The notes: generated from the letters alone by a model not told the origin. DNA of 62,998 nt, filler included, from Licmophora abbreviata (GCA_900291995.1; 24 parts of 24 records of this genome joined end to end with filler, not necessarily neighbours in it); one strand, 5' to 3'; counted from the first letter of the whole stretch, positions 14,651 through 60,044 are shown. Program-made: numbers and translations.

Positions 14651-15210
14651 TCAGTTGTCGACGATGGTCACATTGTCATAGGCGGCGGTGAAGCCTGAAA
14701 GCGAGGCCTTGATGTCCACCACCTGATCGGGCGCCTGAGCCGGGACGATCTGCAGATTGGCCATGGCGCCCGCCTTGAATGCATCGATATCCGCCTGCGT
14801 GAAGCCGATCCGGGCATAACAGCCCACCATCGTGCAGAAGGAAAACGCATAGGTCTTCGCGCGGCCGCCATCGACCGACAGCTTCAGCTCTTCCGACAAA
14901 AGCGTGCCGAGCGGCACGATGATCGTGGCACCCGCCACGGCCTGNNNNNNNNNNNNNNNNNNNNNNNNNNNNNNNNNNNNNNNNNNNNTTAATTAATTAA
15001 NNNNNNNNNNNNNNNNNNNNNNNNNNNNNNNNNNNNNNNNNNNNCTGGTTCTGCCGCGGGTTGGTCCTGTGCGGTCTCGGGCGCGGTCTCAGGCTGCGTG
15101 GTCTGGGCCGGGTCCGTGGCGCTGTCGCCCGTCGCGGTGTCCTGTGCGGCAAGCGAGGTGCTCATGCCCAGAAGGGCGACCAAGGGAAGAAGGTGAAGAA
15201 GTCTGGGCAT
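14651..15210 (-). CDS. Invasion-associated locus B (IalB) family exported protein (split by gap)
   Basis: Signal peptide MPRLLHLL..., acidic linker, PLGTLL, FSFC...GCYA, SLSGFTAAY. Confidence 0.8.
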
Positions 15211-15347
15211 TGCGTCCCCGTTCATCTGACTAAGTTACATTTCATGCGCTCTAACATGGCGCTGCCGAGGTGTCAGGATCAAATTCCAGTCCGCGCCCCG
15301 CATCACGGCGACAAACTGCCGCTCGATCGGCGGTGCCGCATGTCGCG

Positions 15348-15416
15348 AAAAACAGAAAAGAGACCTTGCGGCCTCTTTCCTTTAGTCTCCCTGTCGGACT
15401 GGCCGACTTAGTGATT
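15348..15416 (-). ncRNA. Candidate ~70-nt sRNA B, complementary to sRNA A
   Basis: Minus-strand promoter TTGACG(15451-15446)-17 nt-TAGCGT(15428-15423); terminator GGAAAGAGGCC-gcaa-GGTCTCTTTTCTGTTTTT; no ORF. Confidence 0.55.
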
Positions 15417-15475
15417 GAGCGAACGCTAGGACAGTTACGGCAATCCGTCAACAGTCGAAAGAGCGCCATAAGTGC

Positions 15476-15555
15476 AAAAAAGGCCGCGTCCGTAGACGCG
15501 GCCAGTCTGACAGGGAGGAAGTCACCCCGAACCAGGAGGACATGAGATTCGGGGC
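15476..15555 (-). ncRNA. Candidate ~80-nt sRNA A with anti-Shine-Dalgarno loops
   Basis: Hairpin GCCCCGAAUC/GGUUCGGGGU with UCCUCCU loop, then UUCCUCCCU, terminator GGCCGCGUC-uacg-GACGCGGCC-UUUUUU; promoter-like CTTGCT-17-TATGAA upstream. Confidence 0.7.
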
Positions 15556-15628
15556 AAGATTCATACTGGCGGTCAAACGTTAAGCAAGTATGTTCGAAGC
15601 GTGAAAAAAACGGACGGGGGCGAGTGAC

Positions 15629-17188
15629 ATGGACAAACACATCTTCATCGGGGGCGGTGGCGCCGATTACGGCACCGCTCAGGGCCTGTCGCTGAAATAC
15701 GCCAACCGGCATGGGCTGATCGCGGGGGCCACCGGCACCGGCAAGACGGTCACGCTGCAAATCCTTGCCGAAGGGTTCTCGTCGGCGGGCGTGCCGGTGT
15801 TCCTGTCGGATGTGAAGGGTGATCTGTCGGGGCTGGCCGCCTCGGGCAGTGCCGAGTTCAAGCTGCACGAGGCCTTCACCAAACGCGCCACACAAATCGG
15901 CTTTGCCGATTATCGCTACGAGTCCTTCCCGGTCACCTTCTGGGATCTCTTCGGCGAGCAGGGCCATCCCGTCCGCACCACCGTGGCCGAGATGGGGCCG
16001 CTTCTGCTCAGCCGCCTGATGGGCCTCAGCGAGGCGCAGGAAGGCATCATGAACATCGCCTTCCGGGTCTCGGACGAAGAGGGAATGCCGCTCCTCGATC
16101 TCAAGGATCTGCAGGCGCTTCTGGTCTGGGTCGGGGAAAACCGCGATGCGCTGTCGCTGCGGTATGGCAATGTCTCGCCGCAATCGGTGGGCGCGATCCA
16201 GCGCCAGCTTCTGGTGCTGGAAAATCAGGGGGCCACGGAGTTTTTTGGCGAACCCGCTCTGGACCTCGCCGATCTGATGCAGACCGCGCCGGATGGGCGC
16301 GGGCGGATCAACATTCTTGCCGCCGACAAGCTGATGGGCTCTCCCCGGCTGTATGCCACCTTCCTTCTGTGGCTTTTGTCGGAACTCTTCGAGAGCCTGC
16401 CCGAAGTGGGCGATCCCGACAAACCCAAGCTGGTGTTCTTCTTCGACGAGGCGCATCTTCTGTTCGACGACGCGCCCGATGCGCTGGTGAAGAAGGTCGA
16501 ACAGGTCGCGCGCCTGATCCGCTCCAAGGGGGTCGGGGTCTATTTCATCACCCAGAACCCCGATGACGTGCCCGAAGATATCCTTGGCCAGCTTGGCAAC
16601 CGTGTGCAGCACGCGCTGCGCGCCTTTACCGCCCGCGACCAGAAGGCGTTGATGCGTGCGGCCGAAACCTATCGCCCGAACCCGCGTTTCGACACCGCCG
16701 ATGCGATCCGTGATGTCGGCACCGGCGAGGCGGTGACCTCGATGCTTGAGGCCAAGGGCGCGCCGGGCGTGGTGGAGCGCACCCTGATCCGCCCGCCCTC
16801 GTCGAAACTGGGTCCGGTGGATGCCATCACGCGCGCCGGTGTGATCGCCACCTCTCCGCTCGCCGGGAAATACGAGACGGTGATTGATCGCAGATCGGCC
16901 CATGAGATCCTCGCCGAACGCGCCGCAGAGGCGGCAAAAGCCGCAGCCGAGGCCGAGATGGCTGAAAACGCCCCGCTTGCGCCCGAGGCAGAAGAGCCGC
17001 GCGAATTCACCGCCGCGCGGCGCTATTCGGGCACACGCGTCAGCGGGTCCGGCGCCCACGACAAGGACGATTCGGGGCTTGGCGCCTTCGGCGAGGCCCT
17101 GACCGGCGCGGTACTCAAAGAGCTCAAGGGCACCACGGGCCGCCGGATCGTGCGCGGGATACTGGGCGGGCTTTTCAAGGGCCGCTAA
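15629..17188 (+). CDS. DUF853/YjgR HerA-FtsK-like ATPase
   Basis: [15 protein letters not shown]alker [19 protein letters not shown]alker [10 protein letters not shown]. Confidence 0.9.
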
Positions 17189-23448: not shown

Positions 23449-24129
23449 TCATCCGCCCAGAAAACTCCGCCGCACATCCGCATCCGCCAACAGCTCCTTG
23501 CCGCTGCCGGTATGCGCATTGCGCCCCTGCACCAGCACATAGCCCTTGTCGGCGATCTCCAGCGCCTGGCGCGCGTTCTGCTCGACCATCAGCACCGGCA
23601 GCCCGGTGCGTGCGATCTCGAGAATGCGGTCGAAGAGCTCATCCATGACGATCGGGCTCACCCCCGCAGTCGGCTCATCGAGCATCAGCACCTTGGGTTT
23701 CGTCATCAGCGCGCGCCCCACGGCCACTTGCTGTCGCTGCCCGCCGCTCAATTCGCCCGCCGCCTGATGGCGCTTGTCGCGCAGGATCGGAAACAGGTCA
23801 TAGACCTGCTCCATCGTCTCCGAAATGTCGTCCTCCCGAATGAAGGCTCCCATTTCAAGGTTCTCCTCGACACTCATCGAGGTGAAGATATTTCCGGTCT
23901 GCGGCACAAATCCCATGCCGCGTCGCACGCGCTCTTGCGGCGTCAGACGCGTGATGTCCTCGCCATCCAGCCTGACCGCGCCTTGCCGCAGATCCAGCAT
24001 CCCGAACACCGCCTTCATCGCGGTGGATTTGCCCGCACCGTTGGGTCCCACGATCACGGCGATCTCGCCGCGATCCACCGCCACCGTGCAGCCATGCAGG
24101 ATATCCGGCCCGGTCTTGCCATAGCCGCC
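23449..24129 (-). CDS. ABC ATPase, LivF-type (5' end in gap)
   Basis: [25 protein letters not shown]. Confidence 0.9.
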   Translation of the reverse strand, partial: GGYGKTGPDILHGCTVAVDRGEIAVIVGPNGAGKSTAMKAVFGMLDLRQGAVRLDGEDITRLTPQERVRRGMGFVPQTGNIFTSMSVEENLEMGAFIREDDISETMEQVYDLFPILRDKRHQAAGELSGGQRQQVAVGRALMTKPKVLMLDEPTAGVSPIVMDELFDRILEIARTGLPVLMVEQNARQALEIADKGYVLVQGRNAHTGSGKELLADADVRRSFLGG

Positions 24130-29065: not shown

Positions 29066-29674
29066 AGCTCGCCCTCGGGGGCTGGCAAATCCACCCTGTC
29101 GCGGCGCCTGCGCGATTGGGACCCCTCGATTTCCTTCTCGGTCTCCGCCACCACCCGCACCCCCCGCGAGGGCGAGGTGGACGGGCAGGATTACCACTTC
29201 CTGACCGAAGCACAGTTCCAGCGCGACGTGGCCAATGGCGACATGCTGGAACATGCCCATGTGTTCGGCAATTTCTACGGCTCGCCGCGCGGCGCGGTGC
29301 AGGCCGCCATCGATGCCGGGCGCGACGTGCTGTTCGACATCGACTGGCAGGGCGCCCAGCAGATCCAGAACTCGGCCCTCGGGCCTCACACCCTGTCGAT
29401 CTTCATCCTGCCGCCCTCGATCCGCGAATTGCACCGCCGCCTTGAAACCCGTGGGCAGGACAGCCCCGAGGTGATCGCCAAGCGGATGCGCAAAAGCTGG
29501 GACGAGATCAGCCATTGGGCCGAATATGACTATGTTCTGGTCAATGACGATCTGGACGAAACCGACCGCCGCCTGAAAACCATCATCGAGGCCGCGCGCC
29601 TCAAACGTATCCAGCAGCCGGGGCTGAACGCCCATGTCAAAGCCCTGCACAGCGAATTCGAGGACACCCGATGA
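29066..29674 (+). CDS. gmk: Guanylate kinase (5' end in gap)
   Basis: [39 protein letters not shown]. Confidence 0.95.
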
Positions 29675-31591: not shown

Positions 31592-31699
31592 GCCTTTCGC
31601 GGATCTTCGGGGGGCGGCGCAGCCTGTGCCGTCCCCCTTTTTCCCGTCCTGAACCTCTGCTACCCCCTCCCGCATTCCGACCAGACCCCCGAGGCCCCC

Positions 31700-33163
31700 A
31701 TGCCCGCAACATGGCTTGTCCTGATCGTTCTCGCACTGTCGGCCCTCGGATACGTCCTTGGCCGCCAACGCGCCCTCCAGAATGCTGGCGGCGATAGCCG
31801 CGCCCTGCATTCCCTGCCCAGTTATTACGGCTGGCATGTGGCGCTCATGGCGCTTGTGCCGGCAACAGGCCTTCTGGCCGTCTGGCTCATCCTGCAGCCG
31901 ATCCTTGTCGAAACCACCATCGCCGGGCAACTGCCCGACAGCGCCATCCCCGAAAGCTCGACCCGCAGCCTCGTAATGTCCGATGTGCGCCGTGTGGCCG
32001 ACGGGCTGGATCTGGCCGTATCGCAAGGCGCCATGACCACGGACGAGGCCGCAACCCTGCGCAGCGAAACCGGACAGGTGCGCGAACGCCTGGCCGAATT
32101 GGGCGTCGCCCTCGGCTCGGATGTCAGCGCCGCCGTGCTCAGCGCCGCTCAGGAGTACCGCGCCATGTCGCGCACCGGCAACCTGATGATGACCATTGCC
32201 GTGCTGGCCATCGCCGCGCTTGGCTTCGTCTATGCGCTCTCGCGCACCGACCGCGACTTTCGCGCCCGCAACGTGGTCGAACAGGGCATTCGCGCGCTTC
32301 TGGTCGCGGCCGCAAGTGTCGCGGTGCTGACCACGCTCGGCATCATCCTGTCGCTGATTTTCAACACGCTCGAGTTCTTCAAGCTCTACTCGGCATGGGA
32401 TTTCTTCTTCGGCACCACATGGGCACCCAGCTTCGGGGGCGGCTCCGAGCTTGGCGTTCTGCCGCTTCTGTGGGGCACCTTCTACATCTCGCTGATCGCC
32501 CTTCTGGTGGCGGTGCCGATCGGTCTCTTCTCGGCGGTCTACCTCTCCGAATACGCGCCCCGCAAGGTGCGCTCGGTCGCCAAACCCCTGCTCGAGGTTC
32601 TGGCCGGCATCCCCACCATCGTCTACGGCCTTTTCGCGCTGCTCACCGTCGGTCCGCTGCTGGTGCAGATCTTCGGCGATGACGGCGTCGGCATCATGCA
32701 GGCCAGCACCGCCGTCATGACAGCAGGTCTGGTGATGGGCATCATGCTCATCCCCTTCGTCAGCTCGCTCAGCGACGACATCATCAACGCCGTGCCGCAA
32801 GCGATGCGCGACGGCTCGTATGGTCTGGGCGCCACCAAGTCCGAAACCGTCCGTCAGGTGATCCTGCCAGCCGCACTTCCCGGCATCGTCGGTGCGATCC
32901 TTCTGGCGGCCAGCCGCGCCATCGGCGAGACGATGATCGTCGTGCTCGGGGCAGGGGCCGCGGCCCGACTCTCGATGAACCCGTTCGACGCGATGACCAC
33001 CGTCACCGCCAAGATCGTCAGCCAGCTGACCGGTGACGCCGATTTCGCCAGCGCCGAGGCGCTCGTGGCCTTCGCCTTGGGCATGACGCTCTTCGTGCTC
33101 ACCCTCGGGCTCAATGTCTTCGCCCTCTTCATCGTCCGCAAATACCGGGAGCAATACGAATGA
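31700..33163 (+). CDS. pstC: Phosphate ABC permease
   Basis: LAGIPTIVYG, SRAIGETM. Confidence 0.95.
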   Translation: MPATWLVLIVLALSALGYVLGRQRALQNAGGDSRALHSLPSYYGWHVALMALVPATGLLAVWLILQPILVETTIAGQLPDSAIPESSTRSLVMSDVRRVADGLDLAVSQGAMTTDEAATLRSETGQVRERLAELGVALGSDVSAAVLSAAQEYRAMSRTGNLMMTIAVLAIAALGFVYALSRTDRDFRARNVVEQGIRALLVAAASVAVLTTLGIILSLIFNTLEFFKLYSAWDFFFGTTWAPSFGGGSELGVLPLLWGTFYISLIALLVAVPIGLFSAVYLSEYAPRKVRSVAKPLLEVLAGIPTIVYGLFALLTVGPLLVQIFGDDGVGIMQASTAVMTAGLVMGIMLIPFVSSLSDDIINAVPQAMRDGSYGLGATKSETVRQVILPAALPGIVGAILLAASRAIGETMIVVLGAGAAARLSMNPFDAMTTVTAKIVSQLTGDADFASAEALVAFALGMTLFVLTLGLNVFALFIVRKYREQYE

Positions 33164-34518
33164 CCGACGCGAGTCTTCCCGAGAACAGCGCCGCCGCATC
33201 CGCGCATCGCTCGCTCAACACCGTTGACGCGCGCACCCGCCAGCGCAACCGCGCCGAGGCCCGCTTTCGCGCCTATGGCATCGCCGCCGTAGCCACCGGT
33301 CTTCTGTTCCTGGTGGTCCTGCTCGGCTCGATCCTCTTCAACGGGGTCGGCGCCTTCCAGCAGACCTTCATCAAGGTTCCGGTCTATCTCGATTCCGCCA
33401 AGCTCGACAAATCCGGCGAGCGCGACATCGAGGCGATCAAGAAGGTGTCCACCTTCGGCTACGCGCCGCTGATCCAGCAGGGGCTGTTCGATGTGGTGCA
33501 GGCCGCAGGCATCGAAACCCCGCTCGGCAAACCCGGCGATATGAAGCAGATGATCTCGCCCTCCGCCGCCGCCCAAGTGCGCGACACGGTGATCGACAAT
33601 CCCGACCTCATCGGCCAGACGGTCGAGTTCCGCATCCTCGCCTCGTCTCGCGTCGATGGCTATCTCAAGGACCGGGTGTTCCGCAAAGACGTGGTGCGCG
33701 ACAAGAATATCGATGTCGAACATCTCGATATCGTCGATGGGCTGGTCGCCGCCGGCATCGTGGCCAAGGAATTCAACCTCTCGTTCATCACCGGCGCCGA
33801 CGCCTCCGAAAGCCGCCCCGAACAGGCCGGTCTGGGCGTGTCGATCCTTGGGTCGTTCTTCATGATGCTGGTGGTTCTGGTCCTGTCGCTGCCGATCGGT
33901 GTGGCCGCCTCCATCTATCTCGAGGAATTCGCCCCGCAAAACCGCTTCACCGACCTGATCGAGGTGAACATCTCCAACCTCGCCGCGGTGCCCTCCATCG
34001 TGTTCGGTATCCTGGGTCTCGCGGTGTTCATCCAGTTCGCCCATCTGCCGCAATCCGCCCCTCTGGTGGGCGGCCTCACGCTCACGCTGATGACCCTGCC
34101 GACCATCGTGATCTCGACCCGCGCCTCGCTGAAATCCGTGCCGCCCTCGATCCGTGACGCGGCCCTCGGGGTCGGCGCGTCGAAGATGCAGGCGGTGTTC
34201 CACCATGTCCTGCCGATGGCCATGCCGGGCATCCTCACCGGCACGATCATCGGCCTCGCTCAGGCCCTCGGTGAAACCGCGCCGCTCTTGCTGATCGGGA
34301 TGGTGGGCTACATCGCCACCAACTATCCCGATGGCTTGGCCTCGGGCTTCATGGACCCCAACTCGGCCATGCCCGCGCAGATCTTCGAATGGGCCAAACG
34401 CGCCGATCCGGCCTATTACGAACGCGCCTGGGGCGGCATCATCATCCTTCTGGTCTTCCTGATGACCATGAATATCATTGCCATCATCCTGCGCCGCCGC
34501 TTCGAGCGCCGCTGGTAA
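33160..34518 (+). CDS. pstA: Phosphate ABC permease
   Basis: NLAAVPSIVFG, ALGETAP. Confidence 0.95.
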   Translation: MTDASLPENSAAASAHRSLNTVDARTRQRNRAEARFRAYGIAAVATGLLFLVVLLGSILFNGVGAFQQTFIKVPVYLDSAKLDKSGERDIEAIKKVSTFGYAPLIQQGLFDVVQAAGIETPLGKPGDMKQMISPSAAAQVRDTVIDNPDLIGQTVEFRILASSRVDGYLKDRVFRKDVVRDKNIDVEHLDIVDGLVAAGIVAKEFNLSFITGADASESRPEQAGLGVSILGSFFMMLVVLVLSLPIGVAASIYLEEFAPQNRFTDLIEVNISNLAAVPSIVFGILGLAVFIQFAHLPQSAPLVGGLTLTLMTLPTIVISTRASLKSVPPSIRDAALGVGASKMQAVFHHVLPMAMPGILTGTIIGLAQALGETAPLLLIGMVGYIATNYPDGLASGFMDPNSAMPAQIFEWAKRADPAYYERAWGGIIILLVFLMTMNIIAIILRRRFERRW

Positions 34519-58558: not shown

Positions 58559-60044
58559 TCAGAAGAAGTCGATGGAAACCTGAAGCAGCTGTTCCACCCG
58601 GGCCACATCGTCGGCCATGGCGAACAGGACGATCACGTCCCCTGCCTCGATCCTCAACCCGCCCGTGGGCTTGCGGATCTCGTCGCCCTTCTTCACCGCG
58701 CCCACCAGCACGCCTTCCGGGAAATCGATGTCGCGCACCGCCGATCCGGCAATCGACGAGGTCGACATGATCTCGGCCTCGATCACCTCGGCCTCCGCAT
58801 CGCCGATGGAATAGNNNNNNNNNNNNNNNNNNNNNNNNNNNNNNNNNNNNNNNNNNNNTTAATTAATTAANNNNNNNNNNNNNNNNNNNNNNNNNNNNNN
58901 NNNNNNNNNNNNNNATGGAATAGACCGAGCGCACCTTGCCGTGCCGGATATGTCGCAGGATGGAACTCACCGTGGTGGCGCGCGGGTTGATGAAGGCGTC
59001 GATCCCAAGGGGCTCCATCAGCGGCAACAGCGTCGGGTCATTGACCAGCGTGATCGCAAACGGGCACCCGGCGGCCTTGGCGCGCACGGCGGCCAGCATG
59101 TTGGTCTTGTCGTCATCCGTGACCGCCAGCACCGCATCCGCGCGCGAGATGCCCGCCTCGTTGAGCAACGAGGCATCCAGACCATCCCCGTAAAGCACGA
59201 TCGTGCGCTCCAGCGCATCCGCCGCGCGCTCGGCGCGGCCCCGGTCGCGCTCGATCACCTTGGTGCGGGTGCGCGTGCCGCGTGTCTCCATCGCCTGCGC
59301 CACCGCAAGCCCGATATTGCCGCCGCCCACGATCACCAGACGTTCCTGTTTCTTCTGCGACTTGCCGAACACCTCCAGCGACCGGGGAATGTCCTCGAGC
59401 GGCGCAAAGATATAGGCCTCGTCCCCCGCGAAAAGCTGATCTCCCGCCTCGGGCGCAAAAAGCCGCCCCTCGCGCCGGATCGCCAGCACCACGACCCGCA
59501 AGGTCGAGAACAGATCGCTCAATTGCCGCAGCGGCGTGTTCAGAACCGGGCAATCCTCTTCAAGCCGCAGCCCCATGAGCTGCGCCTTGCCGTCAAAGAA
59601 CAGCTCCGTATCGAAGGCCGCAGGTGAAAACAGCCGCCGCATCGCCGCCTCGGCCACTTCGCGCTCGGGGCTGATGACCACGTCGATCGGCATGTGATCG
59701 CGGCGGTAAAGATCGGAATAGATCGCGTTGAGATAGGACTGACTGCGCAGCCGTGCGATCTTGCGCCGAATGGAAAAGACCGAATGCGCCACCTGACAGG
59801 TCACCATATTGACCTCGTCCGAATAGGTGGCGGCGATGATCATGTCGGCGTCCCGCGCACCCGCGCGCTCCAGAACGTCGGGATAGCTGGCAAAGCCCGC
59901 AATCCCCTGCACATCAAGCGTATCCGTGGCCCGCCGCACCAGATCGGGATTGTTGTCCACGACCGTGACTTCGTTCTTTTCGCCCGAAAGATGACGGGCG
60001 ATCTGCCAGCCAACCTGACCTGCCCCGCAGATGATGACCTTCAT
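58559..60044 (-). CDS. trkA: Trk system NAD-binding subunit (split by gap)
   Basis: GAGQVG and GGGNIG RCK domains, VISPE. Confidence 0.93.

Follow-up and report, generated by a model that had tools for sequence, protein, structure and literature searches.

The spacer between a herA-like ATPase gene and the gene ialB, in a 62,998-nucleotide stretch of DNA deposited as Licmophora abbreviata (GCA_900291995.1; 24 parts of 24 records joined end to end with filler), raises the question of why two units resembling small RNA (sRNA) genes follow each other there, the second carrying a near-perfect complement to the anti-Shine-Dalgarno (anti-SD) region of the first. This whole stretch is hereafter called the window; coordinates and strands are those of the window, and the two consecutive units, A and then B, are read on its minus strand. 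An earlier note on this DNA, made from the sequence alone, described them as a tandem pair in which B is a candidate built-in sponge of A. The answer favoured here, with a probability of roughly 0.55, is broader: unit B would be an independently transcribed RNA of about 70 nt that mimics a ribosome-binding site (RBS) and serves in trans as a decoy, or sponge, for unit A, for the orthologue of the sRNA SorX, for a SorY-like RNA and for further copies of this type.

Anatomy and Distribution of Unit B

Unit B (15348..15416) was delineated as a predicted RNA of about 69 nt from a terminator scan, the folds of 107 homologues, the alignment A1 and the covariance model R1, its 5′ end being placed from the position of the -10 element. 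The predicted fold comprises an AU-rich leader of about 9 nt, hairpin 1 (GUCGG-CCAGU-CCGAC, 15407-15393), the single-stranded hexamer AGGGAG (15392-15387), an A-rich linker and a terminator stem of 12 pairs (15381-15354), which is extended by A:U pairs and followed by a U-rich tail to 15348. A like architecture was predicted for all 107 homologues, each distinct in sequence. Hairpin 1 is 100% paired in alignment A1 and is backed by U-A to C-G changes in six loci; in the terminator helix six of the seven pairs change on both sides, and the observed score was reached by 0 of 500 shuffles. Two terminator-like sites were found on the minus strand, one at the end of each unit, against 0.7 expected from shuffles, in agreement with the two separately terminated units of the earlier note.

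The promoter of B (15423..15451) consists of the -35 element TTGACG (15451-15446), a 17-nt spacer and the -10 element TAGCGT (15428-15423), at the place where the earlier note had read it. A strict sigma-70 scanner did not recognise this promoter (0 sites), and the promoter calls therefore rest on conservation: the pattern TTGAC-N16-18-TAnnnT is present within 75 nt upstream of 169 of the 177 distinct B cores that are followed by a terminator. The -10 element is TAGCGT in 92 of these 169 promoter-bearing loci, and the distance from the -10 element to hairpin 1 is 9-18 nt. Unit B looks like a separate gene with a promoter and a terminator of its own. No Rfam family matched it, and the whole window (63 kb) was also empty at gathering thresholds; STnc50, the sole match of B at E ≤10 (17.3 bits, E 4), was treated as a chance match.

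A BLAST search with the 291-nt spacer gave matches in 162 of 201 genomes of the family Rhodobacteraceae, taken one per genus, and often yielded two matches about 130 nt apart, corresponding to A and B separately. Model R1, built from 101 sequences of B, gives matches, as a rule one each, in 141 of the 145 family genomes and in 0 of 6 genomes of the sister family. In a class-wide sample of 151 genomes R1 scores well only in two members of the family; nine genomes from outside it score 20.7-34.7 bits, and the best of these matches (34.7 bits) was rejected as a bidirectional terminator without GGGAG. Among the matches listed for GTDB representatives (at least 120), the hosts of the pattern span the Rhodobacteraceae/Paracoccaceae and include Roseovarius, Ruegeria, Marivita, Tritonibacter, Jannaschia, Gemmobacter, Tabrizicola, Rhodovulum and Rhodobacter; the chance matches in other phyla, among those listed, have neither promoter nor terminator. 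The conserved cores of A and B are also matched by contigs of many relatives in one metagenome. By its sequence and distribution, B is a candidate small RNA gene, hitherto undescribed, nearly universal in the Rhodobacteraceae and usually present as a single copy.

Unit A and Its Relatives

Unit A (15476..15556) is represented by a predicted anti-SD sRNA of about 80 nt, recognised by Rfam scores below the cut-offs, the terminator scan, the predicted fold and BLAST conservation. It comprises a 5′ hairpin of 10 bp (15555-15524) with UCCUCCU in its loop, the single-stranded stretch CUUCCUCCCUGUCAGACU, which includes the motif UUCCUCCCU, a GC-rich terminator stem of 9 bp (15503-15482) and the tract U6 (15481-15476); both anti-SD motifs named in the earlier note are present. 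The alphaR8 family is defined, in the available text of PMC12559287, by a weak hairpin, a single-stranded UUUCCUCCCU and a Rho-independent terminator, and A contains a 5′ hairpin, the single-stranded CUUCCUCCCU, identical to UUUCCUCCCU at 9 of 10 positions, and a terminator.

In an Rfam scan run at an E-value threshold, with the gathering scores as family cut-offs, the best match of A was SorX (RF02784; 39.9 bits, cut-off 46.6), followed by suhB/mmgR of the alphaR8 type (RF00519; 22.8 bits, cut-off 41, E 0.02 on 551 nt) and SorY (RF02651; 22.7 bits, cut-off 111). Accordingly, the Rfam check that the earlier note had advised for both units gave relatives below the cut-off for A and no family for B. 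In the nearest genome, G001, the equivalent of A scores 36.8 bits against the SorX model, and another locus scores 80.1 bits.

SorX and SorY of Rhodobacter sphaeroides have the seed CCUCCCUGU, a single-stranded linker and the layout of the terminator in common with A, but A falls below both cut-offs, and a true SorX orthologue (the locus with 80.1 bits) and a SorY-like RNA are encoded elsewhere in G001. The genomic context of SorX was not matched at A, whose upstream neighbour is herA, encoded on the other strand; SorX comes from a 3′ untranslated region (3′ UTR), according to the available text of PMC13501541, whereas A lies in a divergent intergenic region. SorY has an RpoHI/HII promoter (PMC4615379, available text), and the corresponding pattern CTTGAT-N16-CCTAAT is absent upstream of A and present at the separate SorY-like loci, that of G001 included. 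The gene for N-formylglutamate amidohydrolase, the neighbour of most single alphaR8 copies though not necessarily of their siblings, does not stand beside A, which is flanked by herA (HerA_C/DUF853) and ialB. By its sequence, A is a distinct new sibling of the SorX/SorY/alphaR8 anti-SD sRNAs and is neither SorX nor SorY.

Several RNAs of the SorX/SorY/alphaR8 type were found in each genome examined. In G001 there are about six with a seed of the CCUCCCUG type, namely A, the SorX orthologue, the SorY-like RNA and three others; the sibling loci are C2:88439-88512, C2:366347-366422, C14:7931-7999, C10:80712-80779 and C3:405639-405698, of which the last two were loci where the motif filter did not recover the seed.

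Upstream of A an alignment by eye over 26 genera showed the motif CATAC-N3-CTTAAC-N8-10-GCCAGTAT (15563..15592, minus strand), which is also present, as CATAC-N3-CTTAAC(C), in the loci L002-L030 and L014. It accompanies A even away from herA, in genome G187, and fits neither the sigma-70 pattern nor the RpoH-type CTTGAT-N16-CCTAAT. Its TTAAC resembles a CtrA half-site. The motif is presumed to be the promoter or an operator of A, overlapping the upstream region of the divergent herA.

Complementarity of Unit B with Unit A and Its Siblings

The arms of the inverted repeat are CUCCCUGUCAGACUGGCCG in A (15499..15517), which spans the seed and the linker and enters the terminator stem by 5 nt, and CGGCCAGUCCGACAGGGAG in B (15387..15405), the core of which is nearly invariant in the family. 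A repeat finder returned the same 18 complementary positions in 19 nt (95%) that had been counted in the earlier note; about 2e-5 such repeats are expected by chance (about 1e5 position pairs in 451 nt × 58/4^19). The complementarity between A and B recurs across genera. The reverse complement of the B core is CUCCCUGUCGGACUGGCCGAC, from which A differs at one central position, and the embedding of RGGGAG in a long complement of the A seed is consistent with the RBS mimicry that had been proposed for B.

For the A and B of the window the net cofold energy is -15.2 kcal/mol, against -3.7 kcal/mol (standard deviation 2.3) with the 5′ part of B shuffled, and 0 of 200 shuffles reached the observed value. 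Unrestricted RNAduplex predictions proved uninformative (-50.9 kcal/mol, against -37, standard deviation 4, for shuffled B), and cofold net energies were therefore used. The SorX orthologue of G001 (CUCCCUGUUGGACUGGCC) can form 18 contiguous base pairs with B, one of them G-U, and SorY-like RNAs (CUCCCUGUUGGACUUCGGCCGA) can form 14 bp, a 2-nt bulge and then 6 bp. Net cofold energies with B in G001 are -14.2 kcal/mol for A, -13.7 for the SorX orthologue, -13.8 for the SorY-like RNA and -15.7 for the RNA designated p3. By these predictions B is not private to A: siblings at other loci, the SorX orthologue and the SorY-like RNAs, match it about as well. The 12-mer TCYRRCRGGGAG is not confined to B: each genome has 8-12 copies. 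Antisense strands of siblings make up about half of the sites listed, and two of nine others inspected lie at ribosome-binding sites.

The adjacent arrangement, for which the earlier note knew of no description, recurs throughout the family: CUCCCUG of A was found 40-330 nt upstream of B in 123 of the 144 loci with at least 330 nt of upstream sequence, and the remaining 21 of the 144 have B without A upstream. The spacer between A and B ranges from about 20 to more than 200 nt and is not conserved in sequence. In genome G187 the two units are about 275 kb apart, the loci being L232 (C1:2128176-2128604) and L014 (C1:~1853200); tblastn gave no match to herA or IalB at either locus. The hairpin of B in G187 starts with A, not G.

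The B core is unchanged where A is absent, as in two Jannaschia loci (L075 and L076) and in L045, L094, L107, L164 and others, and also where the A seed is altered (L163, L165, L108 and L299). Within the genus of the window, B is intact in three loci, L299 (G512), L320 (G505) and L321 (G497), in which A carries a mutated (CCUCAUUGU), an altered (CUUCCCUGU) or an apparently truncated seed. Since A degenerates while B stays intact in close relatives, A appears to be the more expendable partner. The sponge pair of the earlier note thus stands in part: the RBS-like core of B is predicted to complement the A seed family-wide, but a built-in, private partnership does not agree with the retention of B without A, with the unlinked units of G187 and with the equal complementarity to siblings.

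Constraint on Unit B and Covariation with Unit A

In B, the residues C, G and U of the loop CCNGU and the trinucleotide GGG never vary. Among 62 copies of B found by the model, the G residues opposite C and the U opposite A are invariant, and five of the six variable core positions show only transitions that keep a wobble pair (A/G opposite U, C/U opposite G); the sixth is a terminal G-to-A change in two sequences, which breaks the pair. These patterns suggest that the sequence of B is constrained beyond the needs of its own fold. A second type of B, with an extra A in the loop (CCAAGU), tends to accompany the A variants ACUUGCCG or ACUUGGCCG.

Changes in the two arms that compensate each other, which the earlier note had proposed to look for, are represented by several cases. 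Immediately after ACU, about 103 of 141 unique A/B pairs have a G-C base pair and 17 have U-A; 12 are discordant at this position. One genome (G110) contains a clean G-C to U-A double substitution between A and B, and two others (G323 and G278) contain matching one-base insertions, which fit A better than they fit the siblings of the same genome. Cognate A/B pairs have a mean energy of -34.77 kcal/mol against -34.14 kcal/mol for re-paired ones, a difference of about 0.6; the cognate mean was reached in 0 of 5000 permutations, a test blind to relatedness. Mapped on a HerA tree of 94 rows, the state of A requires at least 11 changes and that of B at least 6.

Several results weigh against the view that B is a sponge of A. 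Independent contrasts on the HerA tree give about three co-changes in the same direction, none in the opposite direction and about five without change (sign test, p 0.25). The linker of A varies (CAGA, CGA, UGA, UGGA, UGAA) with B unchanged; ACUGACC in A, found in 6 of the 141 unique pairs, is uncompensated in B; and of the six insertions in the B loop within the genus of the window, only one is compensated among the five loci that also hold A. For a given A, a median of 46 of 140 non-cognate copies of B pair better than its own B. Part of the wobble pattern also fits hairpin 1 of B itself. Finally, among 3926 tiles of 75 nt in the window, the B tile (-15.0 kcal/mol) ranks about tenth in pairing with A; four of the higher tiles are the antisense strand of A itself, and five are unrelated to it and beat the B tile at -15.5 to -17.9 kcal/mol. 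What marks out B is the conservation of the complement and not energy alone.

The five unrelated tiles, all on the minus strand, are 23954-24028, 29384-29458, 31634-31708, 34094-34168 and 58634-58708; they may be mRNA targets of A or chance matches.

Since the permutation test ignores relatedness, the phylogeny-aware contrast gives p 0.25 and many changes are uncompensated, the covariation between A and B is suggestive and is no proof of pairing.

Genomic Context

Upstream of A, on the plus strand and divergent from it, lies the gene of a herA-like DUF853 ATPase (15629..17188; Pfam HerA_C PF05872, E 4e-217). Downstream of B, on the minus strand, lies ialB (14651..15210, start at 15210), encoding a protein with a signal peptide; the Pfam match to IalB (PF06776, E 5.6e-25, on 14651-14938) falls on the C-terminal part. 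The gene is split at about 14944-15044 by two runs of N around the linker TTAATTAATTAA, and it appears as two open reading frames (ORFs) in the mechanical list because of these runs; the interruption is an assembly or scaffolding gap and no biological break. In the 26 loci with long flanks, ialB is found downstream of B on the same strand in all 26 and divergent herA upstream of A in 24, L010 and L030 being the exceptions.

A putative promoter of ialB (15248..15276, minus strand; CTGACA at 15276-15271, N14, TG-T-TAGAGC) is located 3′ of the B terminator. The pattern CTGACA-N14-TGnTAnnn, with an extended -10 element, is present, as judged by eye and not by count, in most B-ialB spacers of 28 loci from the series L001-L030, and apart from it these spacers are not conserved. 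Since ialB carries a recurring promoter of its own, it is probably independent of the promoter of B.

Proposed Mechanism and Alternative Explanations

From the sequence features, conservation, synteny and complementarity, we infer that B is transcribed, that it pairs with its partners in vivo, the direction and consequence of this pairing, and any role of Hfq or RNases. Pairing would nucleate between the single-stranded RGGGAG of B and the single-stranded CUCCCU of the siblings and would extend into the 3′ arm and the loop of hairpin 1 of B. The resulting duplex would have about 14 bp with RNAs of the SorX and SorY types and 18-19 bp with A, where it would reach the foot of the A terminator. 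The seeds of the siblings would thereby be occluded, and one or both partners would be destabilised, probably with the participation of Hfq and RNase E, as for the sponges CrfA and QrrX. Because the promoter of B is near-consensus and of the housekeeping type, B may set a threshold that stress-induced siblings have to exceed.

A more far-reaching form of this reading is that A and B are a linked, co-evolving cassette of an sRNA and its anti-sRNA, with B as a constitutive, family-wide "master sponge" that sets thresholds for the SorX/SorY/alphaR8 stress sRNAs and pairs most with A; this form is put forward tentatively, at odds somewhat short of even. Features that would set B apart are its tandem placement with one target and the length of its complement.

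The strongest rival, though itself unlikely, is that B is the regulated party: it would have a function of its own, in binding a protein or an RNA through its invariant hairpin and GGGAG, and the siblings would switch it off or degrade it under stress. B is indeed more conserved than A, its core being nearly invariant where the A seed decays in several lineages, and hairpin 1 varies less in sequence than the mere ability to form a hairpin would demand. The antagonism of CrfA and SisA in Caulobacter is mutual, as the available text of PMC12559287 has it, and the direction of regulation therefore cannot be read from sequence, a point that bears on the sponge role of B as well. Against a regulated B stands the finding that no other partner emerged, the only long complement of the B core being the sibling seed. 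Among protein partners, CsrA was not found: PF02599 is present in 0 of 31 genomes, 0 of 19 in the genus of the window, in a search whose positive controls (E. coli, B. subtilis and T. maritima) were all matched. A CsrA-sequestering sRNA of the CsrB/RsmZ type was rejected on these counts, and B, as stated, matches no Rfam family.

Less probable still is that the A-B complementarity has no function in RNA pairing, being the relic of an inverted duplication or the sum of an SD-like motif, an anti-SD motif and palindromic GGCC stems. GGCC is self-complementary and GGGAG/CUCCC are generic SD and anti-SD motifs, and the non-significant contrasts and uncompensated changes of A reported above also speak for this explanation. 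It does not account, however, for a complement that is 18-19 nt long in A and 14-20 nt long in siblings from other loci, nor for the inclusion of the B loop and of the siblings' GGACU linker, which neither an SD motif nor a stem needs; the independent co-changes, about three in one direction and none in the other, also disagree with it. Moreover, for the related CrfA/alphaR8 RNAs pairing has been established experimentally, as reported in the available text of PMC12559287.

A role of B in cis, as leader or attenuator of ialB, with read-through from the B promoter modulated by the binding of A, is improbable to a still greater degree. The constant same-strand neighbourhood of B and ialB in the long-flank loci, which holds even in L010 and L030, where a gene other than herA lies upstream of A, speaks for such a leader, but a long GC-rich terminator ends B in 177 loci, a separate promoter recurs before ialB in a spacer that is otherwise unconserved, and the binding site for A does not overlap the B terminator.

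The other possibility raised in the earlier note, a single read-through transcript folding back on the A seed, fits the shared strand, the upstream position of A and the ability of the arms to form a long hairpin, but it is very improbable given the strong A terminator (a GC-rich 9-bp stem, then U6), the variable and unconserved spacer, the conserved promoter of B, the wide separation of the units in G187 and the 21 loci with B and no A.

A small mRNA of the rreR/rreB type was also rejected for B. In the available text of PMC5711450, rreR/rreB matches the 16S rRNA 3′ end over 16-17 nt, a stretch that closes with the GTG of a conserved small ORF of 18 codons. The run of purines in B measures 6 nt; in 101 aligned sequences GGGAG is followed by neither a start codon nor an ORF that is conserved, and the linker varies in length and sequence.

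Comparison with Known Sponge RNAs

The sponge precedent cited in the earlier note is genuine and is the closest to the decoy role favoured for B. In the available text of PMC12559287, CrfA of Caulobacter crescentus acts as a sponge of four alphaR8 siblings, SisA-D, by means of a G/A-rich site that is the complement of UUUCCUCCCU; it needs Hfq for this, and each partner lowers the level of the other. As far as that text goes, CrfA is like B in being a stand-alone RNA of the same bacterial class, with a purine-rich site directed against the anti-SD core of several siblings that have different promoters. It is unlike B in being induced by carbon starvation, where the promoter of B looks constitutive, and in its footprint (G49-C63), which is shorter than the complement of 14-19 nt in B. 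B further differs from CrfA, as there described, in that its site lies only partly in a stem, in its tandem placement with one sibling and in being known here from sequence. In the class-wide sample, model R1 detects no likeness of B outside the Rhodobacteraceae; CrfA itself was not compared directly.

Two more distant systems have the same logic. QrrX of Vibrio cholerae sponges Qrr1-4 and is activated by the LysR-type regulator QrrT (PMC9732341, available text); it comes from another lineage at the level of phyla, its sequence is unlike that of B, and no regulator gene is evident beside B. RosA of Bacillus subtilis, a species described without a known RNA hub protein, is under CcpA control and sponges RoxS and FsrA (PMC8216469, available text); like B it would be an independently transcribed sponge of more than one sRNA, but it comes from a Gram-positive bacterium and its sequence is unrelated.

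Within the family, an sRNA-sRNA interaction is represented by StsR and UpsM of R. sphaeroides: once StsR has bound, RNase E processes UpsM and the dcw leader, a mode of action that the authors set apart from sponging in the available text of PMC8266604. Loci and sequences differ from those of A and B as far as that text describes them; StsR may still overlap unit A. In the literature searched, which included neither the StsR supplement nor the original SorX paper, no description of B, of a sponge of SorX or SorY or of this tandem was found, nor any mention of either 15-17-nt core; in the available part of a 2026 review SorX and SorY appear with no sponge beside them. The supplements of the sRNA surveys of Paracoccus and Ruegeria pomeroyi contain neither the A nor the B motif.

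Significance for the Rhodobacteraceae

The Rhodobacteraceae, to which the roseobacters and Rhodobacter/Cereibacter belong, are important as marine heterotrophs and as model phototrophs, and SorX and SorY are their best-studied stress sRNAs. If B antagonises all siblings with the CCUCCCUGU seed, it would represent a missing layer of control of the SorX/SorY regulon, in which its possible roles include threshold setting, noise buffering and faster shut-off; the high conservation of the linker beyond the anti-SD core of these sRNAs could then be explained in part as well. Model R1 can be used to annotate B in genomes and metatranscriptomes. If the tentative master-sponge cassette were true, B would be the second, independently evolved sponge of alphaR8-type siblings in the Alphaproteobacteria, and the first in tandem with one of its targets. 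Together with CrfA, a sponge role of B would suggest that the Alphaproteobacteria have repeatedly arrived at the sponging of alphaR8-type siblings by means of different RNAs.

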